Source of the DNA: Clostridium sp. CAG:567
GTDB lineage: Bacteria > Bacillota > Clostridia > TANB77 > CAG-508
Assembly (NCBI GenBank): GCA_000437855.1
Contig: FR902206.1
Coordinates: 138,608 to 202,607 of the forward strand
Length of the DNA: 64,000 nt
Reading direction: 5' to 3'
Numbering within the stretch: the first letter of the stretch is position 1; each line of letters starts with the position of its first letter. Below are positions 42,531-42,634 of the stretch, piece by piece. A program made the translations under genes and the position numbers. The notes under the pieces are model-generated. The model did no database searches. It was not told where the DNA came from and saw only the letters and a list, made by a program, of their open reading frames with translations.

Positions 42531-42634
42531 TGTGCCATTGGGGACGGAGAATATTGGCACATGGTCAAATTTGGTTGGTGTAATTTAATTTTATTAATTA
42601 AAATGTGCCAATATTCTCCGTCCCCAATGGCACA
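42531..42634. repeat. Palindromic intergenic element, copy 2: 32-bp perfect inverted arms around a 40-nt AT-rich spacer; same 30-nt core as 16181-16267
   Basis: tgtgccattggggacggagaatattggcacat ... atgtgccaatattctccgtccccaatggcaca. Confidence 0.85.

Follow-up and report, generated by a model that had tools for sequence, protein, structure and literature searches.

The palindromic sequence between yebC and spoIIIAA in the window, the whole 64,000-nucleotide stretch of DNA that was analysed, is on balance probably a REPIN/BIME-like doublet, a dispensable passenger in the leader of the spoIIIA operon. It is composed of two inverted 29-nt units and an AT-rich spacer and would belong to a very small family, whose doublets at this site collapse to solo units that afterwards decay towards AT. 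The doublet and its surroundings, denoted site B, are arranged as follows (window coordinates).

41689–42414, + strand: yebC, 241 aa in relatives
42457–42485, + strand: sigma-E-like motif AAATAGT-14 nt-CATAGCAT, read from sequence, inside a conserved block
42472–42515, + strand: AT-rich hairpin and T7, probable yebC terminator, −19.3 kcal/mol, kept with or without the element
42531–42562, + strand: left arm, made up of the 29-nt unit (42532–42560) with flanking T and AT
42563–42602, + strand: spacer, 40 nt, AT-rich, with a small inner stem
42603–42634, + strand: right arm, the exact reverse complement of the left arm, ending 1 nt 5' of AAAGGAG
42636–42653, + strand: Shine–Dalgarno (SD) sequence AAAGGAG and spoIIIAA start (ATG 42651)
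42651–43544, + strand: spoIIIAA, 297 aa, start placed by NCBIfam, with the spoIIIAB to spoIIIAH genes downstream

A repeat search returned two 32-nt arms (42531–42562 and 42603–42634), 100% complementary to each other and separated by 40 nt, in agreement with the first-pass annotation, which had described inverted 32-bp arms around a 40-nt AT-rich insert and had correctly placed them between the yebC stop (gene end 42414) and the spoIIIAA start (ATG 42651). The distance from the right arm to the ribosome-binding site, previously given as 8 nt, is in fact 1 nt to AAAGGAG (42636–42642); from the arm's end at 42634 there are 4 nt to GGAG and 16 nt to the ATG. As RNA, the element's 104 nt are predicted to form a single unbroken helix (−65.9 kcal/mol, z = −12.4), and searches of the element against Rfam, at gathering and at permissive thresholds, gave only generic microRNA-precursor hairpin matches far below threshold. 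The window has four copies of the 29-nt core, GTGCCATTGGGGACGGAGAATATTGGCAC, at positions 16187, 16233, 42532 and 42605, where 100 shuffles gave an expectation of 0 copies; an nhmmer profile of the unit revealed none beyond these four in the 64 kb. The core is identical in the element at 16181, and the earlier description of site B as the second copy of a repeated palindromic element is borne out by these four unit copies in two doublets. The site B spacer has only its ends in common with the spacers of other family members.

An SD-like GGAG in the left arm lies 10 nt ahead of ATG 42561, and this pair accounts for the miscalling of spoIIIAA as a 327-aa gene. The over-extension of spoIIIAA to 42501, noted at first pass as a trap for open-reading-frame finders, was confirmed (42501–43544, 347 aa), and public calls of both 327 aa (start ATG 42561) and 347 aa exist. 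As a result of the element, spoIIIAA is systematically mis-annotated in public data: more than 100 contigs carry a 327- or 347-aa call where 297 aa would be right.

Units of the family occur either as inverted doublets or as solo units, and were found at the following further sites.

Site A, 16181–16267, no strand assigned: doublet with 38-nt perfect arms and an 11-nt spacer or loop, paralogue of the site B copy
Site C1: directly 3' of ftsH, adjoined by a convergent RluD-like gene
Site C2: flanked by the rpsI terminator and by yunB, a convergent sporulation gene
Site D: solo units beside an array of 50-nt hairpin repeats around pcrA

An exact match to the core was sought in one genome per species across 185,579 species, and was found in only three metagenome-assembled genomes (MAGs), which come from Hadza gut samples and carry the label ‘uncultured Clostridia bacterium’. 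A metagenome scan yielded 58 loci (L numbers below), of which 9 lacked a full arm and were taken as chance matches; the 49 that were kept represent approximately five sites (A, B, C1, C2 and D), ascertained through an exact 19-mer, by which decayed doublets would be missed. Wherever the contig name reveals a source, it is the human gut. Thus defined, the family comprises about four doublet sites per genome together with a handful of solo units, and was encountered only in a narrow clade of uncultured Clostridia from the human gut. The unit had no matches in viral contigs, plasmid records or phage records. No transposase or site-specific recombinase is present among the 63 ORFs of the window, and no RAYT (Y1/HUH) gene was found among these ORFs or beside units in the loci with scanned ORFs. 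A literature search returned no paper describing this element, and neither Clostridia nor Firmicutes feature in a 2024 review of prokaryotic MITEs.

The neighbours of the sites (MBOAT, spoIIIA, ftsH/rluD-like, rpsI/yunB and pcrA genes) have no common functional theme, and doublets favour positions just past terminator T-runs. The site A doublet begins 3 nt past the stop of a 205-aa gene and lies 25 nt ahead of the start of a dltB-like MBOAT gene, with TTTTT following it on the gene strand. At site C1 of one locus (L031, 10057–10092), the convergent gene, for an RluD-like pseudouridine synthase, runs across the right arm and has its stop codon in the spacer, so that its last ~12 codons come from the element (..VPMGTENIGTF*).

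Between sites A and B all 58 of 58 arm bases are identical and the spacers are unrelated, whereas C1 and C2 differ to a similar extent in arms (7 of 58 positions) and spacer (7 of 42; ~83% spacer identity). Between paralogous sites the arms differ at 0–7 of 58 positions against approximately 50% in the spacers (Fisher p from 4e-7 to 2e-4), and 20 of the unit's 29 positions show no variation on either arm across all the paralogous sites, whose spacers are unalignable. Five arm positions have changed on both arms between loci, the changes at positions 7–9 being compensated, and 97.8% of cells are paired between the arms, compared with 31.7–47.2% when the partner is slid. Such kept pairing fits either selection for pairing or self-correction of the palindrome by template switching. 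The unit's own stem is short (6–8 bp with a 13–17-nt loop) and shows no upkeep by covariation. Since the A and B arms are identical around unrelated spacers, the conserved currency is the 29-nt unit, which would then be what is copied, and whole doublets appear to have been duplicated only occasionally. Within site A, the arms differ at 0–1 positions; because third codon positions of the neighbouring gene differ equally little (0–6%), we do not claim purifying selection on the site A arms.

This contrast between invariant units and unalignable spacers could also indicate that the 29-nt unit is a site for a sequence-specific factor, encoded by the host or by an element, for instance a recombinase or a protein that binds DNA or RNA, with the doublets under selection and the spoIIIA copy acting as an accessory control or recombination site. 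The compensated changes at positions 7–9 point the same way, as do doublets that remain pristine at a site where solo units decay, and synteny breaks that end exactly at unit boundaries (L078/L058, the site D inversions, and L003, where a Fic gene lies between units). Against this stand the exact 19-mer ascertainment, which decayed doublets would escape, and template-switch correction of palindromes together with gene conversion between copies, which can mimic selection. No candidate protein was found, conspecific strains manage without the site B doublet, and the neighbouring genes share no theme; we regard this reading as unlikely. As a core site for a tyrosine recombinase the unit was rejected, the central region between its 8-bp half-sites (13 nt) being too long.

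The states of site B across relatives support the REPIN/BIME-like reading. In a sister species (L010–L015, SpoIIIAA 79% identical) the yebC stop is followed by the AT hairpin, T7, ATTCTATAAAGGGG and the ATG, with no element, and the site is likewise empty in L083 and L084. Seven conspecific loci (L009 and L016–L021), whose flanks are 98–99.9% identical to the window and whose SpoIIIAA is 100% identical except in L009 (94%), carry only a decayed 29-nt solo unit, GTGCCGATATTTTATATTTGAAATGGCGC; its length and ends are those of the right arm, and its G+C-rich middle is now A/T. The full doublet is found, with identical sequence and orientation, in six conspecific contigs (the window, L008, L032, L040, L049 and L075). 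Judged by gene-call length, with long-allele calls (327 and 347 aa) on ~114 contigs against the 297-aa call on ~303, and with the short allele seen at six of six 297-aa places among those listed, about one-quarter of conspecific contigs would carry the full doublet. A second species displays three states, a near-intact solo unit (L080), a decayed solo unit (L082) and a doublet (L073), the last with a spacer that is 21/23 identical to that of the window but flipped, on a contig that begins inside the spacer. In a more distant relative (L081), only a vestige, ..TTTGGCACA, precedes the SD.

From these states across strains, a second species and a distant relative, site B has long been occupied, from a time that predates the divergence of at least two species; its states are interconvertible, and the operon, judging from these alleles, does without the doublet in most strains. 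As other conspecific strains lack the doublet, it is better regarded as an accessory passenger than as part of the operon's control region. Presence and absence vary among related genomes in the manner of a mobile element, and the first-pass annotation's competing possibility, an element conserved as part of a spoIIIA regulatory region, is at odds with a site that is empty, solo or doublet by turns.

Doublets have likewise been reduced to solo units elsewhere, in L053 at C1 and in L025/L038 compared with L064 at C2, and singlets appear as decaying remnants of doublets in L053, L025/L038, L080, L082, L081 and the conspecific short allele. Every unit opens with GTGCCA(A/T)T and closes with A(A/T)TGGCAC, which creates 8-nt direct repeats within a doublet; deletion between them would leave exactly one unit, and site B doublets probably collapse in this way, through their GTGCCA..TGGCAC ends.

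The likeness to a miniature transposable element suggested at first pass stands in so far as presence and absence vary. A classical MITE, that is, an internally deleted insertion sequence with 32-bp terminal inverted repeats, moved by a DDE transposase in trans and recently inserted before spoIIIAA, is improbable. In its favour, terminal inverted repeats do enclose a short AT-rich non-coding core (104 bp in all), the element is polymorphic within the species, the C1 and C2 spacers (~83% identical) indicate that whole elements were duplicated at least once, and the T-runs on both sides of the insert region in L073 could be read as a duplication. However, no direct repeat borders the window copy (left flank AAAACT/T, right flank A/TAAAGG) or the copies at A, C1 and C2, of which the A and C1 flanks extend the inverted repeat as an A-run and T-run, and alignment of filled, solo and empty site B alleles shows no target-site duplication. 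The three MAGs, the 49 metagenome loci and the collections of viruses, plasmids and phages yielded nothing longer with the arms at its ends, such as a parent element would be. With neither a target-site duplication nor a parent insertion sequence or transposase (none among the 63 window ORFs), the strict MITE part of the suggestion is not supported. Solo units with both normal flanks (L053, L025) fit REP-type units better than terminal repeats, the identical arms of A and B enclose unrelated spacers, and there are only about five sites per genome. The doublet is common to the window species and the sister species represented by L073, and is therefore not a recent insertion.

Once loci are oriented by their flanks, the spacer is flipped in L005 and L062 (site A), L007 (site C1) and L073 (site B, relative to the window) and in no others; L004 and L002 are merely stored reversed. 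Flips of this kind raise the question of an inverton, in which the arms would flip the 40-nt spacer and turn an outward promoter towards or away from spoIIIA. Each arm has an inward-facing TTGGCA, a − strand TTGGCA-18-TAAATT would face spoIIIA after a flip, and several contigs break within the element. Yet all six conspecific long-allele contigs, from different samples, have one orientation and identical sequence, flips separate only diverged lineages, as expected of rare hairpin template switching, and the promoter-like match (9/12) is at the chance level for AT-rich DNA (5 found against 4.6 expected); on these three grounds the inverton is disfavoured. In addition, known invertases could not achieve synapsis across spacers as short as 11–40 nt, the window has no recombinase gene, and inverted repeats are known to cause artefactual contig breaks in assembly. 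Inversion as a switch is thus extremely unlikely.

Upstream of the element, a block running from AATAGTTCTAAAAT to CATAGCATATATA (AATAGTTCTAAAAT.A.AAACATAGCATATATA), the AT-rich hairpin and a T7–8 run are conserved in all relatives. The sigma-E consensus of Bacillus subtilis has a CATA...T −10 element at 14-nt spacing. In Clostridioides difficile, the sigma-E −35 element has an ATA motif, and in this species as in B. subtilis spoIIIA depends on sigma-E (PMC3789822). The sigma-E-like motif in the conserved block is a putative spoIIIA promoter, with its start in the hairpin loop; the call combines a weak motif match with conservation that could simply mirror the yebC terminator. If it is the promoter, a start in the loop means that the terminator cannot form on the spoIIIA transcript, and the leader would measure ~158 nt with the doublet against ~71 nt in the short allele. 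Because the conserved hairpin and sigma-E-like block lie upstream in all relatives, the doublet would fall within the spoIIIA leader, and the 16 nt between element and ATG are too short for a promoter downstream of it. The idea, raised at first pass, that the element gates or occludes the operon's promoter therefore finds no footing: the sole conserved upstream block lies 5' of the element, and 16 nt cannot hold a promoter. A sigma-54 promoter was rejected (TGGCAC is present, but with no TTGC at the right spacing), as was a CRISPR locus (no arrays).

The other role proposed at first pass was termination of yebC transcription. Extended to insulation of the sporulation operon, this reading gains some appeal from the very stable hairpin 3' of the yebC stop and from the A and C1 copies, which are flanked by an A-run and a T-run right past stop codons and resemble bidirectional terminators. 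Such a role is nevertheless very unlikely at site B. On the + strand, the hairpin is followed by AUAAAGGAG with no U-tract, so that the G+C stem-loop and U-tract of an intrinsic terminator are not both present, and the conserved hairpin with T7 (42472–42515), which already stands between yebC and the element and is also found in element-free relatives, is the likelier terminator. A consensus scan of 42300–42800 gave no terminator-like site, at site B or elsewhere in that interval, and promoter-like sites at chance level, none of which corresponds to the hairpin or the sigma-E-like motif; the scan is not built for the latter, and the AT-rich hairpin and long-loop doublets fall outside its rules. 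By eye, the site A and C1 copies have T5–T8 tails, although site A was not called by the terminator scan; having U-tracts, these two doublets probably double as terminators or attenuators.

For the passenger doublet at site B, promoter control and yebC termination are both unlikely, and its effect would be exerted in RNA. Lying 3' of the yebC terminator and the sigma-E-like block and 1 nt before the SD, the intact doublet, once transcribed, would form a perfect 32-bp helix of about −66 kcal/mol with no U-tract and with the SD free; in the centroid fold of the site B region, the SD is unpaired. The likeliest effect would be on processing or stability of the leader RNA, in which the helix could act as an RNase III-type substrate or as a barrier to exonucleases, modulatory at most. 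What is known of such helices in REP/BIME elements of Escherichia coli operons and in Correia elements of Neisseria (PMC2649163) suggests RNase III cleavage and/or exonuclease protection here, of modest quantitative effect.

Several rearrangements were observed at units. Approximately 4.7 kb of the window (11470–16180, from a tRNA-Gly terminator to the site A element) is absent in L058 and L078, in which the element abuts the terminator and the breakpoint is the exact end of the arm; the segment contains an unknown 346-aa ORF, a KilA-N-domain protein, a DHHW protein and the dltB-like MBOAT gene. In one 1184-nt contig (L061, positions 1–120), the site B spacer is joined to a C2-type right arm and C2 flank, reflecting either ectopic recombination between family members or chimeric assembly through the shared arm. 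At site D (L006 1780–2100 and 5360–5463, L029 60–370, L066 60–340, L003 1380–1671, L044 and L067), the solo unit is preceded by TTGTCA-19 nt-(T/C)(A/G)TAAT, cited as the promoter-like form TTGTCA-19-TATAAT in a conserved module, and is followed by a T-run and three ~50-nt tandem repeats, each consisting of a GGAGCACnnnGTGCTCC hairpin and GCTACGAAT. Two inverted D-site modules flank pcrA and a ZIP transporter gene in L006, and a Fic/HTH gene lies between two directly oriented units in L003. The module had no match in Rfam, and its sequence might represent a small-RNA gene or a recombination hot spot.

A distinctly improbable extension of these observations is that the unit is a functional recognition module, acting either as a DNA site for a recombinase or HUH enzyme or at the RNA level through a small RNA from site D. 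In the DNA version, the enzyme would drive the inversions, the cassette swaps (Fic) and the island boundaries. In the RNA version, the D-site module could encode a small RNA that carries the unit and would be perfectly complementary to the right arm abutting the spoIIIAA SD; if true, this would tie a strain-variable leader element to sporulation control.

Other features of the region were recorded alongside the element. The 40 nt past the yebC stop (42415–42455) exist as two haplotypes of ~75% identity in a background that is otherwise 99% identical. The haplotype other than that of the window is found in L009, L016, L018 and L019, whereas L017, L020 and L021 combine the window haplotype with the short allele; the haplotypes are therefore unlinked to the long and short alleles, and the pattern suggests local recombination. 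In L009, spoIIIAA (1019–1972) has a 60-nt internal tandem duplication (317 aa), and from position 2636 homology to the window stops inside spoIIIAC and the sequence reads G+C-richer; given this abrupt change of composition at the junction, the disruption is probably due to a chimeric scaffold. In spoIIIAE (44731–45883), a +1 frameshift (an extra C near 45508) produces ORFs of 271 and 126 aa in place of the 383 aa of L010. Four independent assemblies (L008, L032, L040 and L075) share the extra C and a 271-aa call also occurs in short-allele strains, so the frameshift is species-wide, and the split gene is either a pseudogene, as in sporulation decay, or a tolerated split. Elsewhere in the window, a 101-aa ORF on the − strand (30307–30612) overlaps the RNase P RNA gene (30335–30689; Rfam, 274 bits) and is almost certainly spurious.

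The picture of sporulation control is unchanged by a dispensable element in an operon that already has a frameshifted spoIIIAE. In practical terms, the element breaks metagenome contigs. It documents a REPIN-like palindromic family, of unusually low copy number, in gut Clostridia, a group poorly covered in such studies, and the long and short alleles form a natural pair for the effect of a perfect 32-bp leader hairpin on a sigma-E-dependent operon. In kind, the element is one more interspersed repeat of the small palindromic type, unusual in its very low copy number, its pristine doublets beside decayed solo units, its preference for positions after T-runs and its units at rearrangement boundaries.

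Among known systems, minute inversions produced by template switching resemble the doublets in their behaviour, with spacers that flip between perfect arms and arms that change together, as is known for hairpin loops of chloroplast non-coding DNA and for bacterial quasi-palindromes. They are a mutational process with no element family, and would explain how doublets behave rather than where they came from.

Correia elements of Neisseria (CREE/NEMIS) have TA target duplications, an IHF site, promoter-forming ends and hundreds of copies. The doublets share with them a size of ~100–150 bp, terminal inverted repeats of 26–32 bp, a location near gene starts and co-transcription as hairpin leaders, but TA duplications, an IHF site, promoter-forming ends and high copy number were not seen here. 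The Neisseria hairpins bind RNase III or are cut by it, and are strain-variable (PMC2649163).

Like the pneumococcal BOX, RUP and SPRITE repeats and other MITE-like repeats of Firmicutes, the family is small, non-coding and interspersed in a Gram-positive host, but the pneumococcal repeats have no sequence relation to the 29-nt unit. They form families of ~100 copies or more, and RUP is thought to be mobilized by an IS630-type transposase with TA duplications. Some small pneumococcal repeats are terminator-like and positioned after genes (PMC3049150).

The closest likeness is to the REPIN/BIME elements of Proteobacteria. A REPIN, as defined in PMC3337134 and PMC3116915, comprises two inverted units and a short spacer, forms a hairpin and is present in tens to hundreds of extragenic copies. 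The first two features are found at site B, with the same architecture at its sister sites, but the window has only 2 doublets in 64 kb, there are ~5 sites overall, and each genome has ~4 doublets. REPINs are mobilized by a RAYT (an IS200-like Y1 transposase), encoded by a single-copy gene that the repeats usually flank; no such gene was seen in the 64 kb or the fetched loci. Only Group 1 RAYTs are reported from Clostridia, and that group goes with far fewer repeats than do Groups 2 and 3 (PMC5581495). The hairpins of classical REPs are maintained, unlike the weak and unconserved hairpin of the 29-nt unit. In both cases, short conserved units are inverted about a short spacer to give a long hairpin, are extragenic and often sit right past stop codons or terminators with no target-site duplication, occur also as singlets that decay, and persist as copies at orthologous sites across species.
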